Source of the DNA: Escherichia coli
GTDB taxonomy: Bacteria; Pseudomonadota; Gammaproteobacteria; Enterobacterales; Enterobacteriaceae
NCBI RefSeq assembly: GCF_030384885.1
Contig: NZ_CP128613.1
Length of the DNA stretch: 64,000 nucleotides
Strand: one strand, 5' to 3'
Part shown: positions 1 to 58,669 of the stretch, piece by piece
How the letters are laid out: every line of letters begins with the position of its first letter
Numbering within the stretch: the stretch's first letter is position 1
Program-made: the position numbers and the translations under genes
The notes under the pieces: model-generated
Database searches by the model: none
What the model was told of the DNA's origin: nothing
What the model saw: only the letters and a program-made list of their open reading frames with translations

Positions 1-3306
<3,306 letters not shown>

Positions 3307-7443: not shown

Positions 7444-7459
7444 TGTGAAGAGGGTCATA
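7444..7459 (+). promoter_or_regulatory. Candidate CRP site in the chb promoter
   Basis: TGTGAagagggTCATA matches TGTGA-N6-TCACA with one mismatch, about 190 bp upstream of chbB. Confidence 0.4.
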
Positions 7460-7962: not shown

Positions 7963-8046
7963 TTTATTTTAAATTTTCCCGTCAAAGAGTTATTTCATAA
8001 ATCAATACCGCAATATTTAAATTGCGGTTTTTAAGGGTATTTTTCT

Positions 8047-9405: not shown

Positions 9406-9455
9406 TCGATGCCGGTAGGAGTAATCGTGCCGGCAAGAAAAGAGAGGAACGATGT

Positions 9456-9806
9456 ATGATGGATCTCGATAACATTCCCGATACGCAAACAGAAGCTGAA
9501 GAGCTGGAAGAAGTGGTGATGGGACTTATCATCAACTCCGGACAAGCGCGCAGCCTGGCGTATGCCGCACTGAAACAGGCGAAGCAGGGCGATTTTGCCG
9601 CAGCAAAAGCCATGATGGATCAGTCACGGATGGCATTGAATGAAGCGCATCTGGTACAGACGAAACTGATTGAAGGCGATGCGGGCGAAGGTAAGATGAA
9701 AGTGAGTCTGGTGCTGGTCCACGCTCAGGATCATTTAATGACGTCCATGCTTGCGCGTGAACTGATTACTGAATTAATTGAGCTTCATGAAAAACTGAAG
9801 GCATAA
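9456..9806 (+). CDS. chbA: PTS chitobiose/cellobiose-specific EIIA component
   Basis: 116-aa ORF in operon position. Confidence 0.9.
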
Positions 9807-9813
9807 GGAGTTG

Positions 9814-10656: not shown

Positions 10657-10758
10657 GTCGTTATACCTGACAATTAACATATCTGTCCTGTTGCTGGATT
10701 ATTTATGTCCGGGGGCAGATATGCCAGATATCAGTATTCTGTACTGAAGGGAGAAATT

Positions 10759-12111: not shown

Positions 12112-12882
<771 letters not shown>

Positions 12883-12892
12883 GTAAGGTGGT

Positions 12893-12920
12893 AAGGTCAC
12901 TCCCCAGGGGGCGTGACCTT
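12893..12920. terminator. Bidirectional terminator between convergent chbG and katE
   Basis: 8-bp perfect arms aaggtcac/gtgacctt enclosing a CCCC/GGGG stem. Confidence 0.5.
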
Positions 12921-12928
12921 ATCCATAT

Positions 12929-15190: not shown

Positions 15191-15393
15191 TGAACTCGTC
15201 TCCTTAATGTATTACTGAAAGGGCCGCTGTTTTGGTCAAAAAACTCTCTAACTATAGACCACCAGCCAGATCCCGCTTCGGAGACTATTCTGGAAACGGT
15301 GTTATGAAATACACGCAAAGCGGGACGTACAGGGGCTAAATCGGCTAAACTACAGTTTTTCTGATTTTTAATATGCGTTTAGTGAAGCCAGTA

Positions 15394-15636
15394 ATGAAGA
15401 AACCGCTCCGTCAGCAAAACCGCCAGATTATTAGCTATGTCCCACGCACGGAACCCGCGCCGCCAGAACATGCGATAAAGATGGATTCGTTTCGTGATGT
15501 CTGGATGCTGCGTGGCAAATATGTTGCGTTTGTACTGATGGGAGAGTCATTTCTGCGCTCACCGGCGTTTACTGTGCCTGAATCCGCCCAGCGTTGGGTA
15601 AATCAGATCCGCCAGGAAGGGGAAGTGACTGAGTAA
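15394..15636 (+). CDS. cedA: Cell division modulator CedA
   Basis: Track ORF 15373..15636; start set at ATG 15394 (MKKPLRQQNRQIISYVPRTEP), 80 aa. Confidence 0.85.
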   Translation: MKKPLRQQNRQIISYVPRTEPAPPEHAIKMDSFRDVWMLRGKYVAFVLMGESFLRSPAFTVPESAQRWVNQIRQEGEVTE

Positions 15637-15912
15637 GGATTACGTACCTCCCGGTTTTGCCGGGAGTTACATGGCCTGAAATTTTGTATTTCATTGCTAC
15701 ATTCATTCAAACCACCTGTAACAAAAAGCTGCCTTTGACGATCTATTGCTATAAATAAGTGATCTTTTTTCTTTAATTGTTTATTTATTTTAAAATGGTT
15801 AAGTTTTGCTAATCATGATGAGCTATTTTTGATAGTTCATCCTGTGGCGTCGCTCTTAAACTTATATTGTAAATGACTTAGATTTAAATGAGATAATAAT
15901 TTTGTTAACAAT

Positions 15913-16728
15913 ATGAGGCGGGAGATGTTTTCTACAAACTTAATACAGAGTAATTATGGTGATTTAAATATTAAAAGCCTGGCTTTCGACTCTTTTAAAG
16001 AAAGGCTGCAGTCTACTATGACAGCACTCACTTTCTTTATATCAACGGGGCAATGTGACTGCGATGAAATAGCAGAATCAAACTTTAATTATATGATTGC
16101 CTATATGTCTAACATTAACTATGATGCCTCAAAGCCAGGAGCGCCAGCACTTAGTTTTGATACATATCTGCAGGACAATGTTAAATATAGAGTAATAATT
16201 AATAATCTTTATGGTAGTGAAATTCGGATAAGAGGTATAAATAAAGATTTTATTGGAATGGATGTCGCTTCTGTATTTCGCCCAGAAAAGATGACCAATT
16301 TGATCAATATAAAAAACAGGTTGGTTATTCACTATTTAAGGACTATATACTATGAACAAAATTATATACATCCTGCCGGGAGTATTTTTTCTGCAATTCA
16401 AAAAAATGAGAGTCTCCTAAAGTTTCCTTCGGTAATATCAATGCTTAATGTCAATCTTCTTTTTAATCCACTGAATCTTCCGGGAATGGGAAGTGGTGTG
16501 CTTGAAGAGATTATGAGTATTTCAGATAGTTCACTTAGAAAACGTCTTGGGTATGAGGTTTTAAGCTTCTCGCTACAAGCACATTCATTGAGTCAGGAAT
16601 GTATTGATAAGTTAGCCATTTTTTTCGCTGACGATCTGTTTAAATATGAGTCAGTATGCATCGCCGCGATGGAACATTTAAAAAGTAAGGCAACGGCCCC
16701 TATACAAAACGGACCGTTGCCAGCATAA
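15913..16728 (+). CDS. ydjO: Uncharacterized protein YdjO (AT-rich)
   Basis: 271-aa ORF (a second in-frame ATG at 15925 would give 267 aa); strongly AT-rich with AT-rich upstream region. Confidence 0.8.
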   Translation: MRREMFSTNLIQSNYGDLNIKSLAFDSFKERLQSTMTALTFFISTGQCDCDEIAESNFNYMIAYMSNINYDASKPGAPALSFDTYLQDNVKYRVIINNLYGSEIRIRGINKDFIGMDVASVFRPEKMTNLINIKNRLVIHYLRTIYYEQNYIHPAGSIFSAIQKNESLLKFPSVISMLNVNLLFNPLNLPGMGSGVLEEIMSISDSSLRKRLGYEVLSFSLQAHSLSQECIDKLAIFFADDLFKYESVCIAAMEHLKSKATAPIQNGPLPA

Positions 16729-16731
16729 GAA

Positions 16732-44364: not shown

Positions 44365-46065
44365 TTATTCAACCTCTTCGCAGATATCCTGAGTTAATCG
44401 CCGCATAATATCTTTCCTTAACAAAAACTTTTGTATTTTACCTGATGCAGTACGTGGTAATTTCTCTGTTACCACAATATGTTCAGGATATTTATATTTT
44501 GCTACCCGTTTACGGCTAAAAAAAGCCACTATGTCTTTCAGCGATATTGAATGATGTGGCGCTTTCAGCACGACATAAGCGCATGAACGTTCACCTAAGC
44601 GTTCATCGGGCATTGCCACAACACAAGCATCATGAATTTTAGGATGCTGTAATAAAATATCTTCCACTTCACGACTGCTAATATTTTCCCCGCCGCGGAC
44701 AATAATATCTTTCTTGCGCCCGGTTATTTTTATATAGCCAGCTTCATCCATTCGGCAGAGATCGCCGCTGTAATACCAGCCTTCTTCATCCAGCGCACGG
44801 GCGGTTAATTCAGGTTCATCAAAATACCCCATAAATACATTGGGGCCACGCGAGGCTTCTTCACCTACACAACCAGGCGGTAAGGTCTTGCGTGCATCAT
44901 CGACCACTTTAATCTCTACGCCTGCGGCAGCGTAACCATCGGTGTTCATAAAGCGCGACAAAGGATCGTCGAGATTTACCACCGCATGCGGCGAACTTTC
45001 TGTGGAACCATAAACACTTAATAATTTAATGCCGCGTTGTTGGCATTCACGCGCCACCTTTTTGGGGATCGTGGTGCCGCCGCAAAGAAAGAAGCGGAGT
45101 GCTGAAAGGTCCGCAGGCTGTTTTTCCAGTAAGTTCAGCAAATCATAGACAAATGGCGTGGCGCCGAGCATACAGGTGCAACGCTGCTGCTCAAGCAGCG
45201 CGAGACACGCATCAGGAGTGAAAATATCTAACAACACGCTGCGAGCACCAATCAAAAAAGGTGCCGTTACGCCATGCAGAAAGCCCGTTGCGTGACCAAG
45301 TGGCGCAGGCATCATAAAGACATCCTGCCAGGTCAGGTTCAGCCGCGCGCAATATGCCCGCTCACTGGCGAGAATATTGTTATGCGTTAGCATCACGCCC
45401 TTTGGCTGCCCCTCAGTTCCGGAGGTAAATAGCACTGCTGCTAATTCATCGCCGTGGACCGTTATTGCCTTAGTCAGTGGGGTATTGTCGGCGATAAGAT
45501 GACTTAACGAGAGGGACGAGGTGGCGGGGGCCAGTTTGTCGACGCCGACGATTTGCTGTAGTTGTGGAAGCTGATTTTGCAGCGGCAGGATTAAATCTAC
45601 CGGACGCGTTTGTTTAAACAACGTCGGTGCAAAGAACATTTTTGCCTGACACTTATTGAGCACCCACACCAGTTCAGCCTCCCGCCAGGAAGGCAACAGC
45701 GGCACGGAAACCGCACCGGTTTTCAGGCAGGCAAGATAGATAACGGTAAATTCACACCAGCCAGGCAGTTGAAAAGCAATGCGATCCCCTGATTCAATAC
45801 CCTTCGCCAGCATCCAGTTTGCCAGACAGCTCGCGGCGTGATCGAGCTCGCTATAGGTGTACGATGCACCATGATTATCGACCACGGCAATTTTATCTGG
45901 CATCGAACGAGCGGTCTGCTGCCAGTAATCGGCCAGCGAAGCATCGCCCCATAATCCTTGTTGACGATAAGCCGCACGACGTTGTTCGTTAAACGTTAAT
46001 GTCACTTTCATTTTGGACTCTCGAAACAGAACATCAGGCCCGAGATACGGGCCTGTGGGATGCAT
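44365..46065 (-). CDS. fadK: Acyl-CoA synthetase (short/medium-chain, anaerobic) FadK
   Basis: 566-aa ORF with AMP-binding motif (TSGTEGQPKGV); ATG at 46065 lies 2 nt after the ydiT stop; an internal ATG at 46011 (MKVTLTF) would give 548 aa. Confidence 0.85.
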   Translation of the reverse strand: MHPTGPYLGPDVLFRESKMKVTLTFNEQRRAAYRQQGLWGDASLADYWQQTARSMPDKIAVVDNHGASYTYSELDHAASCLANWMLAKGIESGDRIAFQLPGWCEFTVIYLACLKTGAVSVPLLPSWREAELVWVLNKCQAKMFFAPTLFKQTRPVDLILPLQNQLPQLQQIVGVDKLAPATSSLSLSHLIADNTPLTKAITVHGDELAAVLFTSGTEGQPKGVMLTHNNILASERAYCARLNLTWQDVFMMPAPLGHATGFLHGVTAPFLIGARSVLLDIFTPDACLALLEQQRCTCMLGATPFVYDLLNLLEKQPADLSALRFFLCGGTTIPKKVARECQQRGIKLLSVYGSTESSPHAVVNLDDPLSRFMNTDGYAAAGVEIKVVDDARKTLPPGCVGEEASRGPNVFMGYFDEPELTARALDEEGWYYSGDLCRMDEAGYIKITGRKKDIIVRGGENISSREVEDILLQHPKIHDACVVAMPDERLGERSCAYVVLKAPHHSISLKDIVAFFSRKRVAKYKYPEHIVVTEKLPRTASGKIQKFLLRKDIMRRLTQDICEEVE

Positions 46066-46067
46066 GA

Positions 46068-46361
46068 TTAGCCGTAGCGAAAATCAATACCGAAGGTGCC
46101 TGCGGGATATTGCCACTGTTCGAGAATCGTATTGCCACACAACACCCGACAGGTGCCGCATTCGAGACAACCGGCGGAATCAAAATGTATGTTTCCTGCG
46201 TCATCCTGCTTATACAGTCCGGCAGGGCAAGCTTTCATTAATTTACGGAATTCATTGATATCGGGATTTGCCGCCAGAATGATATGCGGGTGACCCTCAT
46301 CAACATGGAATTTATTGACACCTAATTTGATGTCGACGTTAACCGTAGCGTTCTGGCTCAT
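46068..46361 (-). CDS. ydiT: Ferredoxin-like protein (FixX homolog)
   Basis: 97-aa ORF with Cys clusters (CLECGTCRVLC); overlaps ydiS stop by 4 bp. Confidence 0.85.
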   Translation of the reverse strand: MSQNATVNVDIKLGVNKFHVDEGHPHIILAANPDINEFRKLMKACPAGLYKQDDAGNIHFDSAGCLECGTCRVLCGNTILEQWQYPAGTFGIDFRYG

Positions 46362-47647
46362 AGCGCGGTTGCTCCCTTAATGCCATCTTTCAGCAAGTTG
46401 ATCAGCCCAATTTTCTTCGCATGTCCCATGATCATTTTGCGTACCGGTTGGTTAGGCTTACCGTCGATAGTGAACATTTCGTTCATGATGTCGGCGACCA
46501 TTCGTGGGTATTGGCTAAACAGGCGCGGGTTTTCCATCAGCGCCGGGATCTTGCGAAAATGCTGCATATCACGCATGACGCAACTTTGTTCCAGCTCACG
46601 TTTGTATTGCGCCAGGCTGCTGGCGGAGAAGTCAGCGCGTTCTTTAGCGGCAATCACTGTTGTGGCAGCAGCCTGGGCCGATGCGATGGCTAAATCCATT
46701 CCGCGAACCGTAAAGCCCAGATTGAGGCAGAAACCTGCGGCATCACCGACGATCATCACGCCCTCATTAACCAGCTGCGGCACCATCGCCAGACCGCCTT
46801 CCGGCACCATGTGCGCGGAATATTCAAGCAGTTTGCCGCCGCTAATCAGTGGGCGAATGGCGGGGTGTTGTTTAAAATCTTCCAGCATTTGCGGCACGCT
46901 TTTTTTTGCATGGGCGATATCACCCAATCCACAAACCAGCCCCAACGATACGGAATCCTTGTTGGTATAGAGGAATCCGCCGCCCATCAGGCCGTCAGAA
47001 GGGGAACCGGCAAACAGCCAGGCGGTACCTTCCTCGCCCATAACATTAAAGCGATCGTTGATTTGCTCTGGTGTAAGACCAATAACCTCTTTAACACCAA
47101 CTGCGTAATGATGCGGATCGGAAGCGGGAACCATTCCCAGCGAGCGGCCAAGCATTGAGTTAACGCCATCAGCCAGAATCACTACATTCGCTTCGAGAAT
47201 ATCCTCCCCGGCCTGGACGCCAGTGACCTTGTTTCCTTCACGAACCAGCGCATCGACGCGAACACCCGGGATAAACTGCGCACCCGCCTGTTCGGCTAGT
47301 TCCATCAACCACGGGTCCAGACGATTACGCAATACGGTATAAGACGCGTGTTGCGGAACATCTGGTTGCTCGCGGTGAAAATCGAGGGTAACGGCACTCT
47401 CTTCGGTTAAGAAGGAGATTTTCTCGCGTGTGACCTTGCGTTCTACCGGTGCTGATGCAGCAAAGCCCGGAATGATCGCTTCAAGTGTGTGGGCATAAAG
47501 ACGCCCGCCGGTCATATTTTTGCATCCGGCACTGTCGCCGCGTTCTATCACCAGGACATCCAGCCCGGCTCGCGCCATGACCAGTGCGGCAACGCTACCG
47601 GCAACGCCCGCACCGACCACAATGGCATCAAATTTGTCATCCGACAT
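46358..47647 (-). CDS. ydiS: FAD-dependent oxidoreductase (FixC / ETF-quinone oxidoreductase-like)
   Basis: 429-aa ORF with N-terminal FAD-binding fold (FDAIVVGAGVAGSVAALVMARAGLDVLVIERG). Confidence 0.9.
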   Translation of the reverse strand: MSDDKFDAIVVGAGVAGSVAALVMARAGLDVLVIERGDSAGCKNMTGGRLYAHTLEAIIPGFAASAPVERKVTREKISFLTEESAVTLDFHREQPDVPQHASYTVLRNRLDPWLMELAEQAGAQFIPGVRVDALVREGNKVTGVQAGEDILEANVVILADGVNSMLGRSLGMVPASDPHHYAVGVKEVIGLTPEQINDRFNVMGEEGTAWLFAGSPSDGLMGGGFLYTNKDSVSLGLVCGLGDIAHAKKSVPQMLEDFKQHPAIRPLISGGKLLEYSAHMVPEGGLAMVPQLVNEGVMIVGDAAGFCLNLGFTVRGMDLAIASAQAAATTVIAAKERADFSASSLAQYKRELEQSCVMRDMQHFRKIPALMENPRLFSQYPRMVADIMNEMFTIDGKPNQPVRKMIMGHAKKIGLINLLKDGIKGATAL

Positions 47648-47701
47648 GCGTTATGCTCCCTTCCCGCTGCGTTTACAGCGGGAGATGTGGTTGAAAGGGA
47701 A

Positions 47702-48640
47702 TTAGCGACTCAACTGACTAATCAGGGCAGGGACGACTTTGTAGATATCGCCCACCAGACCGTAGTCGGCATAGTTGAAGATTGGCGCATTTTTATCTTT
47801 ATTAATGGCGACAATCACTTTTGCACCGTTGCCGCCAACCATATGCTGGATCTGCCCGGAGATCCCCAGCGTCAGGTAGAGATCGGATTTCAGCAACACG
47901 CCGGAGACACCGATATAACGTTCACGCTCCATCCAGTTCTCGCCTTCGGCAATTGGACGTGAACAGCCGACTTCAGCATTCAGAACCGCCGCCAGTTCGT
48001 GGACCATTTTCAGGTCATCCTGCGCCGCCAGACCACGACCGACGCCAACCACACGTTTTGCTTTGCTCAGGTCCACGCTGCTTGCCGCTTTCGCACGGCG
48101 TTCGCGACAGAGAATTTCATGACGCGGGGCAACATAAGGTACCGTTTCTGTCGGGCACTGATGAGAGATATCACTGGTGCACGGTTCCTGAACACCGGGT
48201 GCAAGGGTAATGATCGCCAGCGGGCTGTTGATCTTTTCCTGAGCGAACGCTAACCCGCCATACATCCGGTGTTCGGCGCAAATGTGACCATCGACAATAT
48301 CCACCGCCGTGGCATCGTTCACCAGCGCCGCATTCAGTTGCACACTTAACCGTGCTGCCAGAGCTTTACCACGTTTCGTCGCGGCCAACAGCAACATAGC
48401 GGGGTGTTTATCTTTCAGCAGGGCAGCAATGCTTTCGGCGTAATTTTCAGTACGTTGCAGCGCGTCGTTTTGTTCAAGAACATAAATACATTTTGGCCCA
48501 TAAGGCATAACTGCCTGCGCCTGGTCGGTATTTTGTACAATGGCATACACCTGTTGGCCCCATTGCTGAGCGCCGCCAAACAGTTCAGCATAACGTTCAG
48601 GATTATCGCTAAAGACCCAGACGCTGTTTAATTGACTCAT
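47702..48640 (-). CDS. ydiR: Electron transfer flavoprotein alpha subunit (FixB homolog)
   Basis: 312-aa ORF recognised as ETF alpha. Confidence 0.9.
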   Translation of the reverse strand: MSQLNSVWVFSDNPERYAELFGGAQQWGQQVYAIVQNTDQAQAVMPYGPKCIYVLEQNDALQRTENYAESIAALLKDKHPAMLLLAATKRGKALAARLSVQLNAALVNDATAVDIVDGHICAEHRMYGGLAFAQEKINSPLAIITLAPGVQEPCTSDISHQCPTETVPYVAPRHEILCRERRAKAASSVDLSKAKRVVGVGRGLAAQDDLKMVHELAAVLNAEVGCSRPIAEGENWMERERYIGVSGVLLKSDLYLTLGISGQIQHMVGGNGAKVIVAINKDKNAPIFNYADYGLVGDIYKVVPALISQLSR

Positions 48641-48659
48641 CGTTTCTTCTCCGTAGGCT

Positions 48660-49424
48660 TCAGTTCAGGGCTTTCTTCAGATGTTCCGCCAGCTCGGCAA
48701 TGGCCTCCGGCGAATCGTTATCGAGAATGATGTGCTTACGTTCTGTTTGCGGCGGTACGCGAATGCCGGTCAGTTCAGCAAGTGGTGTGCTCTGGCTCCA
48801 GCCAATATCACTTGCCTGCCACTGATTTACCGGTTTTTTACCCGCGCCGAGAATGGCTTTCATCGAAGGAATGCGTGGCATGTTAATATCGGAGGTGACG
48901 CAGAGCACGGCTGGAACAGAGAGCTCAATAACTTCAACATCATCTTCAAGCGTGCGTTCAATCACCAGTGTATTGCCCTGACGCTGAATAGCACTCACTG
49001 CATTAATCACCGGAAGTTGCAGAATTTCTCCGACCAGCAAGCCAACCTGCTGGGCATAAAGGTCGCCGGAACCTTCACCAAAGATCAGTAAATCGAAGCC
49101 GATCTTTTCAACTGCTGCCGCCAGCGCCTTTGCGGTATCGAGAGGCAGTGCATGTTCAAGTTGCGCATCCTGCACCAAATACAGGCTATGCGGCCCGCGG
49201 GATAGCACGTCTTTGCGCACTTTCGAGTTCTGCAACAATGAGCCGCCAATGGTCAGCGCGGCTATCTCATCGTCATCTGTTGCAATCTGGCTTGCAGCTT
49301 CAATGGCATTGAGATCGAACTGGCTGATTTTGGCGTCGGCATTGTCGAAATTCAGGGTATATTCTGGAGTGACAACAATGTCCTGTTCTTCAGGCACCAG
49401 CTTAAAGCAGGTTATTATTTTCAT
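48660..49424 (-). CDS. ydiQ: Electron transfer flavoprotein beta subunit (FixA homolog)
   Basis: Track ORF extends to 49523; ATG at 49424 (MKIITCFKLVPEEQD) gives the expected 254 aa. Confidence 0.88.
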   Translation of the reverse strand: MKIITCFKLVPEEQDIVVTPEYTLNFDNADAKISQFDLNAIEAASQIATDDDEIAALTIGGSLLQNSKVRKDVLSRGPHSLYLVQDAQLEHALPLDTAKALAAAVEKIGFDLLIFGEGSGDLYAQQVGLLVGEILQLPVINAVSAIQRQGNTLVIERTLEDDVEVIELSVPAVLCVTSDINMPRIPSMKAILGAGKKPVNQWQASDIGWSQSTPLAELTGIRVPPQTERKHIILDNDSPEAIAELAEHLKKALN

Positions 49425-49739
49425 GATTTCTCCTGTGAGTCGCATACGGAACCATCTCCGATGGAAGGTAAAAATGGCCTGAAAATAGTGTGCGATAGCG
49501 GTGCGGGGTTTTCGACGGAGCAAGCTGTTTTCCTTGCCAACAATCTTGCAAAAAAAATGCGATCGCTAAAACAAAAGTGCAATTTGCGGCAAAGTTGTTA
49601 TTCCATGACCGTACAATCTTGCATTCAGTGTAAATAATCTTGTTTAGCTCTCGCTAAACGCGGTTGTATAACCGCAATACACGCCGTATTTTATCCGGCA
49701 TATATTGTTTTTGCTTGCTCATGGAATAGGGAGGTTGTC

Positions 49740-50651
49740 ATGTATCAACGCTGTTTTGATAACGCCAGCGAAACGCTGTTTGTCGCCGGTAAAACGCCAC
49801 GGCTTTCACGTTTTGCATTTAGCGATGATCCAAAATGGGAGTCCGGACATCACGTTCATGACAATGAAACCGAGTTGATTTACGTCAAGAAAGGGGTAGC
49901 AAGGTTTACCATCGATTCTTCGTTATATGTCGCGCATGCCGATGACATTGTGGTGATAGAACGTGGCAGGTTGCATGCGGTGGCCTCTGACGTTAACGAT
50001 CCGGCAACGACGTGTACCTGTGCGCTGTACGGCTTTCAGTTTCAGGGGACTGAGGAAAATCAGCTACTGCAACCGCATTCTTGCCCGGTCATTGCCGCAG
50101 GGCAGGGAAAAGAAGTCATTAAAACCTTATTTAATGAGCTAAGTGTGATTTTGCCGCAAAGTAAAAATAGCCAAACATCTTCGTTATGGGACGCATTTGC
50201 CTATACGTTAGCAATTCTTTACTACGAAAACTTTAAAAATGCTTATCGTTCGGAGCAGGGGTATATTAAAAAAGATGTTCTGATAAAAGATATTCTTTTC
50301 TATCTGAATAATAATTATCTCGAAAAAATCACTTTAGAGCAGTTATCGAAAAAATTTCGTGCCAGCGTCAGTTATATCTGCCATGAATTTACCAAAGAGT
50401 ATCGTATTTCCCCTATTAACTATGTTATTCAACGGCGTATGACGGAAGCGAAATGGTCACTCACTAATACTGAATTATCACAGGCAGAGATCTCCTGGCG
50501 TGTGGGTTATGAAAATGTCGATCACTTTGCCAAACTGTTTTTGCGCCATGTCGGCTGTTCGCCCAGCGATTACCGCAGGCAATTTAAAAACTGTTTTGCG
50601 GAACAAGAAATCCTATCTGAATTTCCTCAACCAGTAAGTCTTGCCGGATAA
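49740..50651 (+). CDS. ydiP: AraC-family transcriptional regulator
   Basis: 303-aa ORF with C-terminal AraC helix-turn-helix; AT-rich; divergent from ydiQ. Confidence 0.85.
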   Translation: MYQRCFDNASETLFVAGKTPRLSRFAFSDDPKWESGHHVHDNETELIYVKKGVARFTIDSSLYVAHADDIVVIERGRLHAVASDVNDPATTCTCALYGFQFQGTEENQLLQPHSCPVIAAGQGKEVIKTLFNELSVILPQSKNSQTSSLWDAFAYTLAILYYENFKNAYRSEQGYIKKDVLIKDILFYLNNNYLEKITLEQLSKKFRASVSYICHEFTKEYRISPINYVIQRRMTEAKWSLTNTELSQAEISWRVGYENVDHFAKLFLRHVGCSPSDYRRQFKNCFAEQEILSEFPQPVSLAG

Positions 50652-50655
50652 ATCT

Positions 50656-50687
50656 GGCGGCGCAGTTTGTTAAGAAGCTGCGCCGCC
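50656..50687. terminator. Bidirectional hairpin between convergent ydiP and ydiO
   Basis: 10-bp perfect arms ggcggcgcag/ctgcgccgcc with a 12-nt loop; no strong T-run. Confidence 0.4.
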
Positions 50688-50693
50688 TGCAGA

Positions 50694-51845
50694 TTATTTG
50701 TTCTGATAATCTTTCAGGATCTGCCGACCCGCTACGTAAATCATAATTTCGTCTGTACCGCCGCCGATACGTTCACAACGGACATCACGCCAGAAGCGGG
50801 AGACGCGCGCCTCATCGGTATAGCCCAGACCGCCCATGATTTGAATCGCATCATCAATAACTTCCATTGCGGTACGTGCGCAGTACAGTTTTGCCAGCGC
50901 CGCGCTGGTGCGCAGTGACTGATGCTGATCGGCTTGCCATGCCACTTTCAACACCATGTTGCGCATGTTGTCGATCTTAATCGCCATCAGCGCCAGTTTT
51001 TCCTGGATCATCTGGTTATGACCAATGGGTTTACCAAAAGCGATACGTTGGTTGGCATAGCGGGCGGCATCTTCGAATGCGCATTCGGCAAAGCCGGTGC
51101 TGCGCGCGGCGTTGATCAGGCGCTCCATCTCAAAGTTGTACATCACATTGAGGAAACCCATTCCTTCTTCGCCCACCATGTCGCTCTCTTCAACCTCTAC
51201 GTTGTCGAGATAGACTTCGCAGGTGCTGAGCATATGCCAGCCGATTTTATGCAGCGGGTTAATCTTAATGCCGGGCTTACTGGAGTCGACCCACCACAGG
51301 GTGAAGGCTTTTTTGGGATCTTTCGGTTCTGGATCGCGCGCCAGCACCAGCATATATGGGTACTCTTTCGCGCCGGTAATAAAGGTTTTCTGGCCGTTGA
51401 TGTAAACCTTGCCATTTTTACGCGTGTAAGTGGTAGTGGCACTGTTATTGTCTGAGCCTGCGCCTGGTTCCGTCAACGCCAGGGCATAGGCGGGATCACC
51501 CGTTTCCAGGGTGCTCTCTGCCGTTTTACGTAGCTGCTCAGCAGAACCGAAACGGCGCATGCTGTGAATACATTGACCGTTGGTAATCAAAAATGCCGGA
51601 GCACCGCATTTTGACACTTCCATCAGCGCCAACATCTGGGTGACGTAATCCGCAGGGATGCCACCAAATTCTTCCGGCACGCCAAGCATAGAAATGCCGT
51701 TATCCGCCAGTGCCCGCATAAACTCACGCGGGTATGTCCCGTTTTGATCGCAGGTGCGGAAATACTCTTCCGGGAAGTTGGTCGTAATCAACTCGCGAAT
51801 ACTGGCCAGCAGCAGTTCTTGTTCTTCAGTTAAAGAAAAATCCAT
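50694..51845 (-). CDS. ydiO: Acyl-CoA dehydrogenase-family protein
   Basis: Track ORF 401 aa; ATG at 51845 (MDFSLTEEQELLL) gives 383 aa; ACAD fold with C-terminal ETF-interacting region. Confidence 0.88.
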   Translation of the reverse strand: MDFSLTEEQELLLASIRELITTNFPEEYFRTCDQNGTYPREFMRALADNGISMLGVPEEFGGIPADYVTQMLALMEVSKCGAPAFLITNGQCIHSMRRFGSAEQLRKTAESTLETGDPAYALALTEPGAGSDNNSATTTYTRKNGKVYINGQKTFITGAKEYPYMLVLARDPEPKDPKKAFTLWWVDSSKPGIKINPLHKIGWHMLSTCEVYLDNVEVEESDMVGEEGMGFLNVMYNFEMERLINAARSTGFAECAFEDAARYANQRIAFGKPIGHNQMIQEKLALMAIKIDNMRNMVLKVAWQADQHQSLRTSAALAKLYCARTAMEVIDDAIQIMGGLGYTDEARVSRFWRDVRCERIGGGTDEIMIYVAGRQILKDYQNK

Positions 51846-51858
51846 CGTGATACTCCTG

Positions 51859-53454
51859 TTAATGAGCCGCTTCAGGCAGGACAAAACCCATCGCCGCATC
51901 GATAAATAATCTTTCGTCCATCAGTTTGAGTTCTGGTGAAATCACTGGGGTGAAATCCATTTTGTCGAGAATATCTTTTTGTAAATCGACGCCAGGGGCG
52001 ATTTCGATTAAATGCAGGCCGTCTTCTTTTAGCGTGAATACGGCGCGCTCAGTGATATAACGAACATCCAGCCCTCGCTCGAGAGCGATTTTTCCGCTGA
52101 AAGTAATTTCCGGTAGTTCCCGAATAAATTTCTTCACCCGTCCTTCCTGGACGATATTTAATTTGCCGTCGGTAATTTCTGTTTTTAAACTGCCCGCAGT
52201 TAACGTGCCGCAGAAAACGATTTTCTTCGAAGTGGCACTGATATCAATAAATCCACCGGTGCCCATGATTTTACCATTGAATTTATGCACGCCGACGTTA
52301 CCGTGCTGGTCGACTTCAGCAAAACTCAAATAACAAACATCCAGACCGCCACCGTGATAAAAATCAAACTGGGACGTCATATCCAGAATGGCACGGGTAT
52401 TCACGTTCGCGCCAAAGGCGATACCCTGTGAAGTAATACCGCCAATTGGGCCTGTTTCTACCGTCAGAATAAAGTCATCAGCACAACCTTCTTCCCGGGC
52501 GACCAGGCCAATGCCGTCAGCAATACCGACGCCGACATTCCCCACCGCGCCTTTACGCATTTCGAATAATGCGCGCCGCGCAACTAATTTACGTTGGTTT
52601 AGGGGCAGGCTAAGTTTGGTACTGTCATCAAGGGTGAAGTCACCAGAAATAAAGCGGTTAACCGGCGCACCGCCATACAGTTGGGTTTGATCCGGATCGA
52701 CCACCACAATATCCACCAGATAACCCGGAATACGGACAGATTTAGGATGCAGCGTGGCTTTCTTAACCATTTTCTGCACCTGCATCATCACAATACCGCC
52801 GTTATTGTGCACCGCCTGAGCAATAACCAATGCGTCGAGATACATCACCTCATCTTCAAAAGTGGCGTAGCCTTCGCTGTCGCAGGTGGTAGCGCGAATG
52901 AAGGCGATATCTGGCGCTATCGCTTTGTAATAGAGATATTCTTTGTTATCAAACTCGACCAGTTTAATCAGGTCTTCTTTAGTGACTTCATTCAGTTTGC
53001 CGCCTTGCTGGCGTGGATCGACAAATGTTCCGATGCCAATATCACTAATAATACCAGGCTGGTGGGCTGCGGCGGCGCGTAAGGTTTGTGTAAGTACACC
53101 TTGTGGATAGTTATAAGCAATAATTTTATTTTGTTCTGCGAGATCAGAAATACGCGGCGATTGTCCCCAGTGACCGCATAATGCCCATTTCACCAGACCT
53201 TCTTGTGCCAGCGGACTAATACCACGGTCGGCGCGATCGCCAAGCCCTGTTGGACTAATAATCGATAAATTACGTGGTGTTTGAGTCTGTTTATATTTAT
53301 CAGCAAGAGCAGTAATTAACGTGGTGGCTTCCAGAATACCGCCGCCAGCGCCTAACACACAAAGTGTTGCTTCGTCGGGAATATAATTCACCGCTTCCTG
53401 TGCCGACAGGACCGGCACTCGTCCATTAATACGAGGTGGTTTTACAGGTTTCAT
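51859..53454 (-). CDS. ydiF: Acyl-CoA:acetate/short-chain acid CoA-transferase (fused alpha/beta)
   Basis: 531-aa ORF recognised as a family I CoA-transferase. Confidence 0.9.
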   Translation of the reverse strand: MKPVKPPRINGRVPVLSAQEAVNYIPDEATLCVLGAGGGILEATTLITALADKYKQTQTPRNLSIISPTGLGDRADRGISPLAQEGLVKWALCGHWGQSPRISDLAEQNKIIAYNYPQGVLTQTLRAAAAHQPGIISDIGIGTFVDPRQQGGKLNEVTKEDLIKLVEFDNKEYLYYKAIAPDIAFIRATTCDSEGYATFEDEVMYLDALVIAQAVHNNGGIVMMQVQKMVKKATLHPKSVRIPGYLVDIVVVDPDQTQLYGGAPVNRFISGDFTLDDSTKLSLPLNQRKLVARRALFEMRKGAVGNVGVGIADGIGLVAREEGCADDFILTVETGPIGGITSQGIAFGANVNTRAILDMTSQFDFYHGGGLDVCYLSFAEVDQHGNVGVHKFNGKIMGTGGFIDISATSKKIVFCGTLTAGSLKTEITDGKLNIVQEGRVKKFIRELPEITFSGKIALERGLDVRYITERAVFTLKEDGLHLIEIAPGVDLQKDILDKMDFTPVISPELKLMDERLFIDAAMGFVLPEAAH

Positions 53455-53597
53455 TGTTAATTCCTGATTCAGGTGTGATTTTCCCTACGCCAGATGGAGA
53501 ATTAGCGCACAGAGACTCACGAAATATTTTTATTAAATACGGTTGAATATATTTTTTTGTTCGGCGGGGGAGGGTATTCCCGCCGAAATATTATTGC

Positions 53598-54356
53598 TTA
53601 TGCCTGATGTAAAATAGTTAATACCGTGCGCAAATCATTTACCGAGATTTGCCCTGGCGCAGAGGCTTTTTTTACCGCACCAAAAGTTGCCGCCGAGCCA
53701 AATACTTCACCAGCCAGACGAGAAATTACGCCAGTTTTTGCCATCGACATCGTGATGATTGGACGATCGGCATACTGCTCCTGCATCTCCAGGGTCGCAG
53801 CAAGCAACGTCAGCACATCGCTGGTACTTTGCGGCATCAGCGCAATCTTAGGAATATCGGCATCGAAGGACTGCATTTTGCGCAGACGGGCAATGATTTC
53901 TTCGGCTTCCGGCGTTTTATGGAAGTCATGGTTGGACATGACAACTTTCACATCATGCGCGTGGGCGTAGGCGACGGTTTCTTTAACCTGATCATCGCCG
54001 GTAAATAACTCCAGATCGATCATATCAACCAGGCCACTATCGATGGCTGCACGATTGAGTGCAATATAAGCCTCGGTGGAAATCGCCTGCTCGCCGCCTT
54101 CTTTGGCACTGCGGAAGGTAAACAGCAGCGGTTTTTCTGGCATGGTTTCACGGAGAATTTTTGCCGCTGCCATGACAGACTCCACATTGGAGAGGTCGGC
54201 ATAGTGGTCAACACGCCATTCCAGAATATCAAAGTCCGCTTCACGATAGGCGAGAGCTTCGGATTTCACGCTGGCGATATCTTTCGCCATCAGCGAGACG
54301 ATGATTTTAGGTGCGCCCGTACCAATGACGAGATCTTTTACAGTTACGGTTTTCAT
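53598..54356 (-). CDS. aroD: 3-dehydroquinate dehydratase (type I)
   Basis: 252-aa [55 protein letters not shown]. Confidence 0.93.
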
Positions 54357-54386
54357 TTTTTACCCTTTCTGCACGCGGTCAGCCTG

Positions 54387-55253
54387 TCAGGCACCAAACC
54401 CCATGACCTGTTTAACATATTCCAGAGGGAAATCTTTGCCAGTCCATAACGTGAACTGTTCAGCCCCTTGCCACAACAACATGCCGTATCCATCAATCGT
54501 TTTGCAACCAGCTTGTTGCGCCTGCTGCAATAACTTCGTCATATGCGGGTTATACACGCATTCAGTGACCAGAAGTCCCGGATGTAACAGACTGATATCA
54601 TTAACCAATGATTCATTCTCAAGGGGTTTCATACCCACTTTTGTGCCATTGGTTAAAATGTCGGCGGAAGCCAGGGCTTCAGCAAAGGCTTGCTGATCGG
54701 CGAGATCGGTGACTGTCACGACGCAATCGGTGTTTTCGTTAACCCGCTGCGCGAAGGCGAGGGCTTTATCGAAGAACTCATCCCGACGGTTAAAGAGTTT
54801 AATTTCTTTTAAACCTTCAATTGCCCCCTGCGCGCCAATCGCCGTTGAGGCACCTCCGGCCCCTAACAGCACCATCGTTTTGCCTTTGATATCAAAACCG
54901 CTCTCTTTAATGGCGCGAATATGCCCCGTGCCGTCGGTGTTATAGCCACGCAGATAGCCATCATCATTAACGATGGTGTTGATGGCCCCCACCAGTTTGG
55001 CAGCTGGTGTTAATTCATCAACATATTCACACGCCAGTTGTTTGTTCGGCATTGATACACCAGTTCCGCGCATTTTTAGAGCTTTTAATCCTTCAATTGC
55101 TCCGGGAAAGCTATCGTTATCCACTTCAAAGGCCATATAGGTAAATGGCAATCCCGCTTTTTCTAAGGCTTTATTCTGCATTTCGGGCGATAAACTGTGG
55201 CGGATAGGATAGGCCATCAACCCAATCAATTCGTATTTTGCGGTAACATCCAT
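54387..55253 (-). CDS. ydiB: Quinate/shikimate dehydrogenase (NAD-dependent)
   Basis: 288-aa [38 protein letters not shown] (shikimate dehydrogenase fold). Confidence 0.9.
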
Positions 55254-55264
55254 AATTAACTCCT

Positions 55265-56530
55265 TTAACCTCTATGCTTAATTGTGTTTAACCGGGTGCT
55301 AAATTTACGCTCGCCAAACCGCACATCATTTTCAGGAATAATGAAAACGCGGTAATAGCGGATAAAAACAATAATTGCGGTAATCAGGGCCAGCAGCGCG
55401 AAAGTAAAATCGAGAACAATGATATATTGCAGGCCGATGTTCGACAGATAACCGGTAATCAGCGGAATAACAAAGTTAGCCAGTCCACCCATCATCATAT
55501 AAATACTGGTGACTTTGGCTTTGCTTTTGGGGAAAAACTCTGACATGACCGAAACGCCGAGCTGTAAAATGCCGCCAGCCGCTGAGAAACCGATAACAAA
55601 GGCTCCGGCATTACACACCAGTGGAGAAGGGTACAGGTAGATAATGGCAGCTGTTATTGTTGCCAGTGCAGAGTTAAATACATTAGCCCAGATGGGCCGG
55701 ACCATTTTTTTCAGTAGTGCGGCAAAAATAAAGACACAGACCAACGAGCCCATACTGTAATAAGAGATGGTTTTTAATGCCTCAGCTTCTGACATACCAG
55801 CAAAAGCCATCGCATATTTGGGCATCCACACCACAATCACATAAAAGGTCGAGAATGCGGCTACACCGAACAGTACCGATGAAACACCTTCCAGCCAGAC
55901 TAATGGTTTGCTGTTCATTTGTGGTAATTCATGAGCTACGCTGGCGTCCACCAACTGGCTGGGGAATTTGCTTTTCAACAGCATCAACGTGATCAGTAAA
56001 AATAGGATGCCTGGAATAATCAGCCCATAGCCGTACCAGATATTATTGAGCAACATATAGCTCACTAGCATTGGATAGAACATTTGTCCAAATGACACCA
56101 TTGCTTTAACCAGTATGACTGCCGAACCGGAGGCTTTCGGAAAGCATTCCATTAGCGCGGGGTAACCACCCGTATCCAATGCTGAGTTAGCGATACCTAC
56201 GCACACTGCCAGACAGTAGGCGAGAGTTAAATTCGGGCAAGCGGGAATACCAAAGAAGAATAGCAGATACATTATTACTGCCATTAATATTACCGCCCGA
56301 CGACCAAACTTATCGGAGATCACACCGAAGAATAAAATACTGATCAATCGCCCCAAACCGATACCGGAAATTAAATAGGCAATGCCCGCGTTGTCAGTAG
56401 AAAACTTTTCTGCCAGAGATGACATATTTTGGGCAAGCGTTATAACACTAATGCCGTGCAGGAAATAGCTGAAGTAAATACAAAGAACAGCCAGGATAAA
56501 TGGCGTGCTGAAAGCCTTATTTTGAGACAT
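55265..56530 (-). CDS. ydiN: MFS transporter YdiN
   Basis: Track ORF starts at GTG 56536; ATG at 56530 ([20 protein letters not shown]) gives 421 aa; 12 predicted TM segments. Confidence 0.85.
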
Positions 56531-56756
56531 TTTCACAGCTCCTTGCTGAAAGATAATTTCGTTACCGTACGTATTGTTCTCCGACGGTTTACATAATTAC
56601 TATACTGAAGATGATTTTCCCTGGGTACATGGCATAAAGTTTATGTTTCCAGGAATATTGCATGTCATAGTTTGTTTTTTATCGCGATTTTCCTTAGTTG
56701 GCGCAGAAAGAGTTATTTATCCGTAAGATCTTGCATGACCTGAAAAGAATATTGCA

Positions 56757-57971
56757 TTACCCACCCGGAGCGACATTTTCCTTTAGCGAGTGATGCCACG
56801 TTTCTTTGCGGCTGCGTAAGCCGATAAACAGTGCCAGTAAAAAGCCGATGGCAGCGATGGCGGTATCGAACCACATAATATCGGCAATACTTCTTTGGGA
56901 CAGATGAGCCGTAATCAACGGAATAGTAAAGGTCGCAATACTGCCCGCACTGTAATAGATCCCTGTAGCTTTACCTTTAGCGTAGGGGAAACGTTCAGCC
57001 ATTAATGTCAGGCCAATTTGCACAACACCTCCAGCAGAGGTAAAACCAATGACAAAAGCAAATATTATCACCACATAAAATGTGGGATGCAGACAGACGG
57101 TAAACAGAGCAATAAATGAGATAAAGGTGTACAGCATCAGTAATGTTGTTGGGCGAACGGTATTACGAATGAGTGGAGCGGTAATAAATACACAAAGCAG
57201 CGAACCCACGGTGTAGATACTGAGTAGTTTGATCGACATAGTGTATGACATGCCTGCAACAAATTGTCCGTACTGTGCCAGCCACTGGCTAACCAGATAA
57301 AAGGTTGCCATTGAGATATAGCCATATAAGGTATAACTGGCTAAATCGATAATTGAACAGCGATGTTCCGTAGAGTTGGTGGCTTTCTCTATGACAGGTA
57401 AGCGACGACCCGGATGTGGTGGGAACGTACAACGGTATAAAAACAGAGCGTTAATAAACATAATGCCTGCGGCAATCATAAAGGACCAGCCGAACCACAG
57501 TTCAGCCCACACTAACAGGCTGATGATTAGCGGTAATAAAAATTGCCCGCTGGAAACAAATGCTTTAATTAAAATATTAGCTGTACCCGGTGAACGTGGA
57601 AAAGCTTCCATCAAACTGGGATAGGTGCCTGCATCGAGAAAACTGTTTGCCATTCCCGCCAGAAAGCCCAAACCATAAGCGATAATGATGTTATTGGTGT
57701 GCAGGATGCCAAAAAAGAAGGCCATATAGCAGCACATCCCGAGCATGATAAAAGGGCGGCGACCAAAGCGATCGGATAATAATCCTGCAAAAAGCAAGAC
57801 ACTTAATCGACCAATACCCAGCGATGAGATAACTATTGAGACGCCTGCGGCATTAGTCTGCCAAAGCGTCTCCAGCGAGGCCATATTCAGGCTCATCAAA
57901 ATGACGCCCATACCATGCACCAGGTAATTAAAATACAACCCAAGTGCGGTAGGGAAATAGGGATTTTTCAT
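56757..57971 (-). CDS. ydiM: MFS transporter YdiM
   Basis: 404-aa polytopic ORF, paralogous in architecture to ydiN. Confidence 0.85.
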   Translation of the reverse strand: MKNPYFPTALGLYFNYLVHGMGVILMSLNMASLETLWQTNAAGVSIVISSLGIGRLSVLLFAGLLSDRFGRRPFIMLGMCCYMAFFFGILHTNNIIIAYGLGFLAGMANSFLDAGTYPSLMEAFPRSPGTANILIKAFVSSGQFLLPLIISLLVWAELWFGWSFMIAAGIMFINALFLYRCTFPPHPGRRLPVIEKATNSTEHRCSIIDLASYTLYGYISMATFYLVSQWLAQYGQFVAGMSYTMSIKLLSIYTVGSLLCVFITAPLIRNTVRPTTLLMLYTFISFIALFTVCLHPTFYVVIIFAFVIGFTSAGGVVQIGLTLMAERFPYAKGKATGIYYSAGSIATFTIPLITAHLSQRSIADIMWFDTAIAAIGFLLALFIGLRSRKETWHHSLKENVAPGG

Positions 57972-58069
57972 AGGTTCTACTTAGCAAAGGTGCTTTAAAA
58001 AGTGAAGCGATGTTGTGTCAGCATCCGTTCATTATTGTTGTAACAACGACAATTCCTTTCTTTGGAAAA

Positions 58070-58426
58070 TTAACAAAGGCGCTCCAGATCGTGTGCATAT
58101 AATTCAGCGGCTACCGATTGATAGATCTTCCAGTCAATAAAATTGCCATCAGGGTAGACACGTTGAAACGCGGTTAAGTCAGGGAAAAAACGCATGGTGT
58201 TGTTGCCGATGTGGTTATTTATTTTCTCTATGATGGCATGAAGATGTTTTTTTCGTTGCTGTCGCATAGCCAACAGTTGCTCGACCACACGATCAGGAAT
58301 GGCGCATTTGCCATTTTCCCACTGACGCCAGCTTTCACTGTCACCGGTCTGGGCAATCCAGGTCGCGCATTCATCAATAGTCATGGCAAAAATATGGCGG
58401 AGTGCCTGGAGTTCATAAGCGTTCAT
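58070..58426 (-). CDS. ydiL: Uncharacterized protein YdiL
   Basis: Track ORF starts at TTG 58453; ATG at 58426 (MNAYELQALRHIFAMTIDECATW) gives 118 aa. Confidence 0.75.
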   Translation of the reverse strand: MNAYELQALRHIFAMTIDECATWIAQTGDSESWRQWENGKCAIPDRVVEQLLAMRQQRKKHLHAIIEKINNHIGNNTMRFFPDLTAFQRVYPDGNFIDWKIYQSVAAELYAHDLERLC

Positions 58427-58564
58427 CGTGTAATGGCTGCATGAAATAAACAATAAAATATAAATAACATTATCAGCCTGCTGACGGCTTGAAGAGAGTC
58501 ACAGTATCTTGTGCAACATTATTGGAAAGAGTGAGGGGCGAGGTAGCGAAGCGGAAAAATGTTA

Positions 58565-58669
58565 AAAAAAAGCCCATCGTGGGAGATGGGCAAAGACTAC
58601 ACACAGCAATTCGTTGTTTCACTCAGGGGATTTCCATGCTTATAAATCAATATGTTGATTTATAACCGT
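58565..58669 (-). ncRNA. rprA: Small regulatory RNA RprA (RpoS translational activator)
   Basis: Reverse complement matches the RprA sequence as I recall it (ACGGTTATAAATCAACATATTGATTTATAAGCATGG...CCCATCTCCCACGATGGGCTTTTTTT), with a 3' terminator hairpin (cccatctcccacgatggg) and U-run; no ORF. Confidence 0.8.

Follow-up and report, generated by a model that had tools for sequence, protein, structure and literature searches.

Transporter, quinate/shikimate dehydrogenase and dehydroquinase genes of the Escherichia coli ydi locus as the possible front end of a hydroaromatic-acid reduction unit

Why should two genes for transporters of the major facilitator superfamily (MFS), ydiN and ydiM, lie beside aroD and ydiB, which encode a type I 3-dehydroquinate dehydratase and a quinate/shikimate dehydrogenase? 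The question is raised by a 64-kb stretch of Escherichia coli DNA (hereafter the window, meaning the whole stretch that was analyzed), which has 100% identity to the E. coli 2013C-4282 chromosome (NZ_CP027579.1), where the RefSeq annotation gives the same four genes. As described in the initial annotation, aroD, ydiB, ydiN and ydiM are adjacent and co-oriented, with open reading frames (ORFs) that match the expected coordinates and all lie on the minus strand. The locus is present in 5425 of 5426 complete E. coli genomes and is thus core. We propose that these genes belong to a larger unit, ydiM-ydiN-ydiB-aroD-ydiF-ydiO-ydiP-ydiQRST-fadK (44365-57971), that would use quinate and shikimate as an anaerobic electron sink and would end in a reduction, a proposal for which we judge the case to be evenly balanced. 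A narrower statement is likely to hold: YdiN and YdiM handle exogenous hydroaromatic acids along with YdiB and AroD.

The first lead came from the genomic contexts of seven distant YdiN homologues from metagenomes. For a systematic comparison, one genome per species was scanned with a YdiN/YdiM-family profile, giving 80 loci whose neighboring genes were tallied by tblastn within a 10-kb range. An MFS transporter, a YdiB-like dehydrogenase and a dehydroquinase (together, the triad) were found within this range in 75 of the 80 loci, and two of the five loci without it are truncated contigs. The triad occurs in Enterobacterales, Sutterella, Enterococcus, Megasphaera, Lactobacillaceae, Clostridium and Bacillus. 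The initial annotation had suggested that the four genes serve uptake and interconversion of quinate, shikimate or dehydroshikimate; the linkage behind that suggestion is not a local accident, but interconversion is probably just the first half of the pathway.

The second half is suggested by what accompanies the triad. In 72 of the 75 triad loci, one of three non-homologous C=C reductase systems lies within 10 kb. YdiF and YdiO are encoded in 33 proteobacterial loci (Enterobacterales and Sutterella), nearly always with an electron-transfer flavoprotein (ETF) and FixCX; counted by gene, YdiF lies beside YdiB/AroD in 33 of the 34 proteobacterial triad loci, as well as on the metagenome contigs L004, L008 and L011, and YdiQRST-type genes co-occur with the triad in 32 of the 34. 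The second system, present in 26 Firmicute triad loci (Enterococcus, Megasphaera, Clostridium, Bacillus, Isobaculum and others), is a flavoenzyme of the old yellow enzyme (OYE)/Fe-S type related to BaiCD and 2,4-dienoyl-CoA reductase (FadH), whose gene in most cases has the orientation of ydiB and is separated from it by less than 350 nt. The third was found in 12 Lactobacillaceae loci among the 14 that remained, where ApbE and an FMN_bind/FAD_binding_2 reductase related to urocanate (UrdA) and fumarate reductases are encoded directly 3' of aroD. One Sporolactobacillus locus has an acyl-CoA dehydrogenase (ACAD), ETF, FixCX and a FadK-like ligase. That three non-homologous reductases fill one place beside the same three genes is, in our view, the strongest argument available, and it suggests that the pathway ends when the double bond in the shikimate or 3-dehydroshikimate ring is reduced.

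The association also holds where gene order has been shuffled, and for this reason too we favor a single reductive unit. In L004, L008, L009 and L011, genes for the MFS transporter, YdiB and AroD are intermixed in differing orders with those for a CoA-transferase, an acyl-CoA dehydrogenase, ETF alpha/beta and a FixC-like protein, which are homologues of E. coli ydiF, ydiO, ydiQ, ydiR and ydiS; ydiB-aroD is flanked by ETF and FixC in L004, follows ETF in L011 and precedes ACAD-MFS-ACAD-ETF in L009. In Sutterella, the genes form two divergent operons, ydiQRST-fadK and ydiN-ydiB-aroD-ydiF-ydiO, and their products share 75-84% identity with E. coli YdiB, YdiF and YdiO. FadK homologues are found in the Sutterella (59-61% identity) and Sporolactobacillus (53%) clusters.

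Sutterella further connects the locus with a measured activity. Eggerthella lenta and Sutterella wadsworthensis reduce the enoate of shikimate to hydroshikimate, which aids anaerobic growth (Little et al.), and S. wadsworthensis has a ydi-like cluster (L040); together with the high identity of the Sutterella proteins, this reduction is a further reason for the reading proposed here. The shikimate reductase of E. lenta is a single shikimate-induced flavin reductase (Little et al.), and its class resembles the third partner type described above, that of the Lactobacillaceae. In Sutterella-type clusters an FAD_binding_2 flavin reductase gene also adjoins the fadK-ydiTSRQ arm (L008 1-3343, where a two-component system precedes it; L040 about 1784-3300), and the shikimate reductase of S. 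wadsworthensis could be either this enzyme or the ydi-like module.

Two further systems, both outside the enterobacteria, are comparable. In caffeate respiration, Acetobacterium woodii CarABCDE combines a CoA ligase/transferase loop with an acyl-CoA dehydrogenase/ETF reductase that acts on a plant-derived unsaturated acid. In the 1970s, Whiting and Coggins reportedly found that Lactobacillus plantarum reduces quinate to dihydroshikimate, with quinate, dehydroquinate, dehydroshikimate and reduced ring acids said to form a redox sink. To our knowledge, neither pathway has so far been linked to the E. coli ydi genes. The Lactobacillaceae loci carry an operon in the order YdiB-MFS-AroD-ApbE-FMN_bind/FAD_binding_2 reductase next to a LysR gene (L047 9009-14768; L055 7026-13195, whose flavin reductase has a fused NAD(P)H-FMN reductase domain), which is a candidate gene set for quinate reduction by lactobacilli.

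The proposed E. coli pathway would have five steps. A hydroaromatic acid would be imported by YdiN and perhaps also by YdiM. Quinate would then be oxidized by YdiB to 3-dehydroquinate, which AroD would convert to 3-dehydroshikimate, and YdiB or AroE would interconvert this with shikimate; these activities are known. In the third step, CoA primed by FadK would be cycled by YdiF onto the ring carboxylate, and in the fourth, the ring C1=C2 bond of the thioester would be reduced by YdiO, with electrons arriving via YdiQR and YdiST by analogy with CaiA/FixABCX acting on crotonobetainyl-CoA. The hydroshikimate product would finally be released and exported, and aroD would retain its biosynthetic role. 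Extended to other organisms, the proposal becomes more tentative, and we put it a little below an even chance: E. coli, other Enterobacterales and Sutterella would carry out CoA-dependent conversion of dietary or microbial quinate/shikimate to hydroshikimate through the ydi locus under control of YdiP and FNR, and Firmicutes would have built the same trait with unrelated ene-reductases.

Family assignments of the back-end proteins give this scheme a further line of support, in that they parallel CaiA, FixABCX and cyclohexanecarboxylate-CoA ligase. A CoA ligase, a CoA-transferase, an acyl-CoA dehydrogenase, ETF alpha/beta and FixC/FixX-like proteins are encoded together at 44365-53454, so that the Cai/Fix-type gene set is complete. 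Each of YdiO, YdiQ, YdiR, YdiS and FadK matches the NCBIfam model specific to it. After these, the best-scoring families are CaiA (452 bits), the acryloyl-CoA reductase AcrC and cyclohexane-1-carbonyl-CoA dehydrogenase for YdiO; FixA, FixB and FixC for YdiQ, YdiR and YdiS, respectively; and cyclohexanecarboxylate-CoA ligase (426 bits) for FadK. For YdiT, FixX is the sole match and lies below its cut-off. The mechanically predicted ydiO ORF (50694-51899, 401 aa) is probably too long and would overlap ydiF, and the annotated start is at 51845. Similarly, the true fadK start is probably near 46011, because the profile aligns only from residue 19 of the 566-aa mechanical ORF.

In its general plan the back end resembles caiTABCDE and fixABCX, which likewise bring together a transporter, a CoA ligase, a CoA-transferase, an ACAD-type reductase and a FixABCX electron supply, and which act anaerobically on the CoA ester of an alpha,beta-unsaturated acid. 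CaiA/FixABCX acts reductively in vivo. The ydi system differs in that YdiO falls below the CaiA cut-off (452 vs 540 bits), YdiF belongs to CoA-transferase family I whereas the CaiB type is family III, the transporters are of the MFS type, and two additional enzymes, YdiB and AroD, prepare the substrate. By these comparisons, the ydi back end resembles cai/fix without being a member of it.

The two arms of the E. coli locus also appear to share regulation. A direct repeat, TGCAAKAT (termed the ydi box), lies upstream of both ydiN and ydiQ, with all copies in the orientation of the downstream gene. Copies are found 132, 205 and 226 nt ahead of the ydiN start and 126 and 199 nt ahead of the ydiQ start; the spacing from the proximal copy to the next is 73 nt in both cases, and the two regions align at the motif blocks. 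Across 20 Enterobacterales loci, the density of TGCAAKAT is 3.87/kb in the ydiN and ydiQ promoter regions compared with 0.069/kb elsewhere (56-fold), and from Yersinia to Escherichia there is hardly any change in the copy nearest ydiQ (TTTTTTTGCAAGATWGTTGG). A spacing of 21 bp separates pairs of copies at ydiN (56756 and 56735) as well as in L015, L021, L039 and L040. S. wadsworthensis, where ydiQRST-fadK and ydiN-ydiB-aroD-ydiF-ydiO diverge from one control region, has the repeat in that region. The 10-mers first tried as motifs, with one mismatch allowed, showed no window-wide enrichment; the signal resides in the exact copies, their position and their conservation.

The AraC-family regulator YdiP is a candidate to bind these boxes. 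It accompanies the cluster, with 58-99% identity in Enterobacterales, and AraC genes are also present in L004, L009, L011 and L036. A published FNR chromatin immunoprecipitation (ChIP) peak lies at ydiP/ydiQ; FNR half-sites are weakly enriched overall, and the sole relevant one (49875-49888) agrees with that peak. One regulon would comprise the promoters of ydiN and ydiQ, with a shared ydi box that is probably bound by YdiP and with FNR binding nearby. TyrR boxes were rejected as an alternative, with 27 matches against 31 expected and none convincing upstream of ydiN or aroD. Expression data are available for both arms: according to a summary of Johansson and Liden (2006), carbon limitation of a shikimate producer jointly increases expression of ydiN, ydiB and aroD, and in a growth-phase comparison of another shikimate-accumulating E. 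coli, ydiQ, ydiR, ydiS and ydiT rank with the genes whose expression differs most. The shared motif, these expression data and the FNR site are further arguments for a single unit.

A further question is whether the unit is interrupted between aroD and ydiF, where the initial annotation had placed a terminator that separates the aroD block from ydiF. The hairpin itself is real: the 71-nt segment that contains it folds at -17.5 kcal/mol (z = -4.05), and none of 200 shuffled sequences was as stable. On the minus strand, from which aroD is read, it is followed by CAAAAAAAUAUAUU, an A-run without a U-tract, and the sequence past the stem reads CAAAAAAATATATT. A terminator scan reports 53560-53587 on the plus strand only, where the T-run lies, and no plus-strand gene there needs a terminator. 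A canonical intrinsic terminator after aroD was therefore rejected, as the stem is real but the U-tract lies on the wrong side. A hairpin just past the aroD stop is found in most genera, with unrelated sequences that mostly lack a U-tract; the feature is conserved in position and may be a 3' stabilizer or a leaky attenuator, and retention of a biosynthetic role by aroD would explain its presence. It is no evidence for a functional boundary. Gene order argues against the proposed separation as well, since ydiF-ydiO directly follows aroD in Sutterella too, and elsewhere ydiB-aroD lies inside a CoA-transferase/acyl-CoA dehydrogenase/ETF cluster. In the window, the aroD-ydiF interval contains no consensus-like promoter and no ydi box, which fits read-through from aroD, although it does not prove it; this interval and the missing U-tract are the last of the observations that lead us to treat the locus as one unit.

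Between the hairpin and ydiF, about 60-90 nt past the aroD stop, an inverted repeat, GAATATT(N5-9)AATATTC, is conserved in L014, L019, L032, L037, L038 and L041-L043, which are loci of Citrobacter, Kosakonia and some species of Escherichia. The repeat, of which the window has a weaker form (about 53505-53530), may be an operator through which a regulator acts on ydiF-ydiO.

At the front end, curated profiles bear out the identity of the two enzymes. AroD scores 292.2 bits against TIGR01093 (cut-off 139.3) and 260 bits against PF01487, and it has the Schiff-base Lys170 and the general-base His143 at the expected positions, residues whose roles are established enzymology. YdiB scores 669.9 bits against the equivalog model NF009390 (cut-off 349), with catalytic Lys71 and Asp107 in place; the DNA identity of its locus is 95-99% among E. 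coli genomes, and EcoCyc lists a quinate reaction with dual NAD/NADP use for the K-12 enzyme. Because the gaps are 11 nt between ydiN and ydiB and 30 nt between ydiB and aroD, compared with 226 nt between ydiM and ydiN, ydiN-ydiB-aroD looks like a single tight operon, with ydiM standing slightly apart. A 668-aa database protein (P0007) joins YdiN (99% identity) to YdiB domains; given that the two genes are only 11 nt apart, a frameshift or an error in gene calling is a more probable origin than a true fusion.

These properties would also suit a simpler pathway in which YdiN and YdiM import quinate, shikimate or dehydroshikimate and YdiB and AroD feed them into chorismate synthesis, sparing phosphoenolpyruvate and erythrose-4-phosphate, with ydiF...fadK as unrelated neighbors. 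The functional type I hallmarks of AroD in a 64-kb window that encodes no type II dehydroquinase agree with such salvage, as do the very short gaps in the ydiN-ydiB-aroD operon. Shikimate-kinase-like genes (PF01202) near the triad in L009 (7570-8235), L010 (9314-9955), Megasphaera (L073-L085) and Serratia/Brenneria/Symbiopectobacterium (L018, L022, L023 and L046) fit a branch into chorismate synthesis, and so do the aroK neighbors and chorismate-mutase fusions described in a 2023 PLoS One paper. Salvage would, however, leave unexplained why ene-reductase systems of three unrelated kinds accompany 72 of 75 triads and why the ydiN and ydiQ promoters have a motif in common, and ShiA already serves shikimate and dehydroshikimate in E. 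coli. As the whole function of the locus we consider salvage unlikely; it is compatible with the reductive unit, whose front end it could share as an additional use.

ShiA resembles YdiN and YdiM in being an MFS importer, with shikimate and dehydroshikimate as substrates, but its MFS family is a different one (the metabolite:H+ symporter model, cut-off 443, gives YdiN 21.5 bits), and shiA, unlike ydiN and ydiM, is not clustered with enzymes. That YdiN and YdiM are paralogous, as the initial annotation held, is borne out by 37% identity across 385 residues (E = 7e-87). The transporter of the Firmicute operons is nearer to YdiM (41-57%) than to YdiN (32-36%). Both proteins match the general domain model MFS_1 (PF07690; 115 bits for YdiN and 133 for YdiM), and a crude hydropathy scan showed many hydrophobic segments in each without resolving 12 helices. 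On the aromatic acid:H+ symporter model TIGR00895 they score 43.6 and 35.4 bits, respectively, below the cut-off of 418.55; TCDB places both in 2.A.1.15, the aromatic acid:H+ symporter family. No solved structure related to YdiN by sequence was found. YdiM would be a second importer or a product exporter.

The arrangement of transporter, YdiB-type dehydrogenase and dehydroquinase is shared with catabolic quinate clusters. Corynebacterium qsuABCD and Acinetobacter qui combine these three functions and are substrate-induced. The same clustering and induction are published for Listeria qui1/qui2, which comprise a transporter, a quinate/shikimate dehydrogenase and a dehydroquinase. Unlike ydi, where the recurrent partner is an ene-reductase, qui/qsu clusters run on via dehydroshikimate dehydratase to protocatechuate, and the ydi dehydroquinase differs from theirs in being a type I enzyme that also serves biosynthesis. 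A tblastn search with a QuiC-like query from Telmatospirillum revealed no QuiC/QsuB homologue in the 64-kb window, and among the 80 loci the query matched only its own source, the Telmatospirillum locus. A catabolic quinate cluster is excluded, as the window encodes neither a dehydroshikimate dehydratase nor a type II dehydroquinase nor an OYE-type reductase.

Several points weigh against the reductive unit proposed here, foremost among them that ydiFO, ydiQRST and fadK have been assigned in print to anaerobic oxidation of fatty acids or butyrate. YdiF is annotated as an acetate/3-ketoacid CoA-transferase and, unlike CaiB, belongs to family I, and for the E. coli Ydi proteins we infer everything beyond the second step. 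The locus might run in the opposite direction, with the whole ydi unit oxidizing hydroshikimate, or a related cyclohexanecarboxylate from gut microbes, via its CoA ester, YdiO and ETF to quinones, and yielding shikimate for biosynthesis or energy. Acyl-CoA dehydrogenase, ETF and ETF-quinone oxidoreductase normally work oxidatively, YdiO is similar to cyclohexane-1-carbonyl-CoA dehydrogenases, and the published role of ydiQRST-fadK is oxidative and requires an external electron acceptor. The Firmicute partners (OYE/Fe-S and UrdA-like flavin enzymes, one with the fused NAD(P)H-FMN reductase domain) are nevertheless best known as reductases, and several sources give the name crotonobetainyl-CoA reductase to CaiA/FixABCX, the nearest paralogous system. 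We regard the oxidative direction as quite improbable.

The comparative evidence has counterweights of its own. One inherited arrangement accounts for most of the 33 proteobacterial loci, which hence represent few independent events (about five gene orders). In the reverse test, YdiO homologues of at least 77% identity lie in ydi-like clusters, and relatives at 62-74% (Desulfovibrio, an Escherichia albertii paralogue and one orphan) lie in modules of the form MFS, CoA-transferase, ACAD, ETF and FixCX without YdiB/AroD. The link to the triad is thus valid for the orthologous group and not for the wider YdiO family, which looks modular, every module being tied to its own substrate-handling genes. 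Two such sister modules, L094 of E. albertii (4504-12872) and L093 of Desulfovibrio desulfuricans (5134-17537), contain an AraC or LysR gene, CoA_transf_3, an MFS gene, two acyl-CoA dehydrogenase genes, one of whose products is 63-68% identical to YdiO, and ETF beta/alpha; L093 additionally has FixC/FixX and an AMP-binding ligase. Both transcriptome observations on the ydi genes are moreover non-specific to shikimate.

The remaining counter-evidence concerns the transporters. A ydiN deletion raised the shikimate titre just 1.3-fold, a small effect; a ydiM deletion impairs bo3 quinol oxidase and metal uptake, and ydiM has also been tied to copper; and EcoCyc, whose curators found no compelling evidence of quinate transport in K-12, accepts no transporter for quinate and classes it as a dead-end metabolite. 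YdiN and/or YdiM might instead expel by-products such as quinate and dehydroshikimate that arise when YdiB and AroD run backwards. According to a summary of Johansson and Liden (2006), they proposed export of this kind, the altered titre of the ydiN mutant agrees with it, and YdiM is listed as a putative exporter owing to an isoprenol-tolerance phenotype. By-product overflow is a property of engineered strains, however, and export would leave unexplained both the conserved neighborhood of triad and reductases in Firmicutes and Sutterella and the LysR/AraC-regulated operon structure; we regard it as very improbable. Still further from our expectation is that the genes are adjacent without a shared function, with aroD and ydiB as ordinary shikimate-pathway genes and a YdiN/YdiM cargo, for example copper or solvents, that has nothing to do with them. 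The ydiM phenotype would suit such a cargo, and so would the family searches, in which no substrate-defined NCBIfam transporter family reached its cut-off with either protein, all scores lying far below and only the general MFS_1 model matching; this reading is already disfavored by a triad kept in 75 of 80 loci, across two phyla and with tight same-strand spacing.

Parts of this picture are already in print. Johansson and Liden (2006), as summarized, proposed that YdiN transports shikimate or by-products, and the 2023 PLoS One study found that about 75% of YdiM/YdiN homologues adjoin a shikimate-pathway gene, mostly ydiB, aroD or aroK; the arrangement in Klebsiella is ydiB-ydiM-aroD alone. 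The four-gene association and a quinate/shikimate role of the transporters are therefore not new. In the searchable papers, which leave most subscription journals outside and make the result provisional, no link of ydiF, ydiO or ydiQ to shikimate, shikimoyl-CoA or hydroshikimate was found for E. coli, and CoA-dependent shikimate reduction by YdiF/YdiO was not described. Relative to those papers, the link to three reductases, the shared promoter motif and the treatment of the whole ydi locus as one reduction unit are provisionally new. A single hypothesis would in this way cover about a dozen poorly understood E. coli genes, including ydiO and ydiQRST, whose function is disputed in the literature, and would tie the ydi genes to shikimate reduction, recently shown to aid anaerobic growth of gut bacteria. 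If true, YdiB, YdiN/YdiM, YdiF, YdiO, YdiP and YdiQRST would have a joint physiological role, and hydroaromatic-acid reduction would be widespread in gut and plant niches; the proposal could also bear on the loss of ydi/ydiP in extraintestinal Salmonella and on by-products in industrial shikimate strains.

Table 1. Features of the ydi locus, with coordinates in the window; roles given as proposed or candidate follow the reductive scheme.
Feature	Coordinates	Strand	Details
ydiM, MFS transporter, ydiN paralogue	56757..57971	-	404 aa; 37% identical to YdiN
ydi box distal, ydiN	56747..56756	-	TGCAATATTC; 21 nt upstream of middle
ydi box middle, ydiN	56722..56735	-	TGCAAGATCTTACG; 73 nt upstream of proximal
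ydi box proximal, ydiN	56653..56662	-	TGCAATATTC; 132 nt before ATG
ydiN, MFS transporter, candidate quinate/shikimate importer	55265..56530	-	421 aa; PF07690
ydiB, NAD(P)-dependent quinate/shikimate dehydrogenase	54387..55253	-	288 aa; NF009390, PF08501, PF18317, Lys71 + Asp107
aroD, type I 3-dehydroquinate dehydratase	53598..54356	-	252 aa; TIGR01093, PF01487, His143 + Lys170, RefSeq
hairpin, 10 nt past aroD stop codon	53560..53587	-	9-bp G+C-rich stem
ydiF, family I CoA-transferase, proposed to transfer CoA onto ring carboxylate	51859..53454	-	531 aa; PF01144; PDB 2AHU is the same protein
ydiO, acyl-CoA dehydrogenase family, proposed enoyl-CoA reductase	50694..51845	-	383 aa; NF008997 787 bits
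ydiP, AraC-family regulator	49740..50651	+	RefSeq; NCBIfam AraC-type families below cut-off
ydi box distal, ydiQ	49610..49623	-	TGCAAGATTGTACG; 73 nt upstream of proximal
ydi box proximal, ydiQ	49537..49550	-	TGCAAGATTGTTGG; 126 nt before ATG
ydiQ, FixABCX-like electron-transfer flavoprotein	48660..49424	-	
ydiR, FixABCX-like electron-transfer flavoprotein	47702..48640	-	
ydiS, ETF-quinone oxidoreductase-like	46358..47647	-	
ydiT, ferredoxin-like	46068..46361	-	
fadK (ydiD), acyl-CoA synthetase, proposed CoA-cycle primer	44365..46065	-	NF004758 1075 bits

Some minor observations concern the four genes and their surroundings. A longer, GTG-started ORF extends ydiN to 56536. Over 53000-58500, the window has at least 99% identity to just 2 of 5425 E. 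coli genomes, the rest being 95-99% identical, and the allele or lineage of this strain therefore appears to be uncommon over this segment. The RprA small RNA (58562-58669; Rfam, 118.5 bits), just upstream of ydiL, is the only known RNA element in the locus and has no relation to the four-gene finding; its terminator is canonical (58591-58572, with a T-run after it). Also upstream of ydiL (58070-58426), which encodes an Aca2/YdiL-like protein, the sequence ATAATGTTGCACAAGATA at 58505-58522 is kept as ATAATATTGCACAAGATA in Citrobacter, Kosakonia and Intestinirhabdus, and ATAATGTTGCACAAGATA resembles a ydi box with one inserted base.

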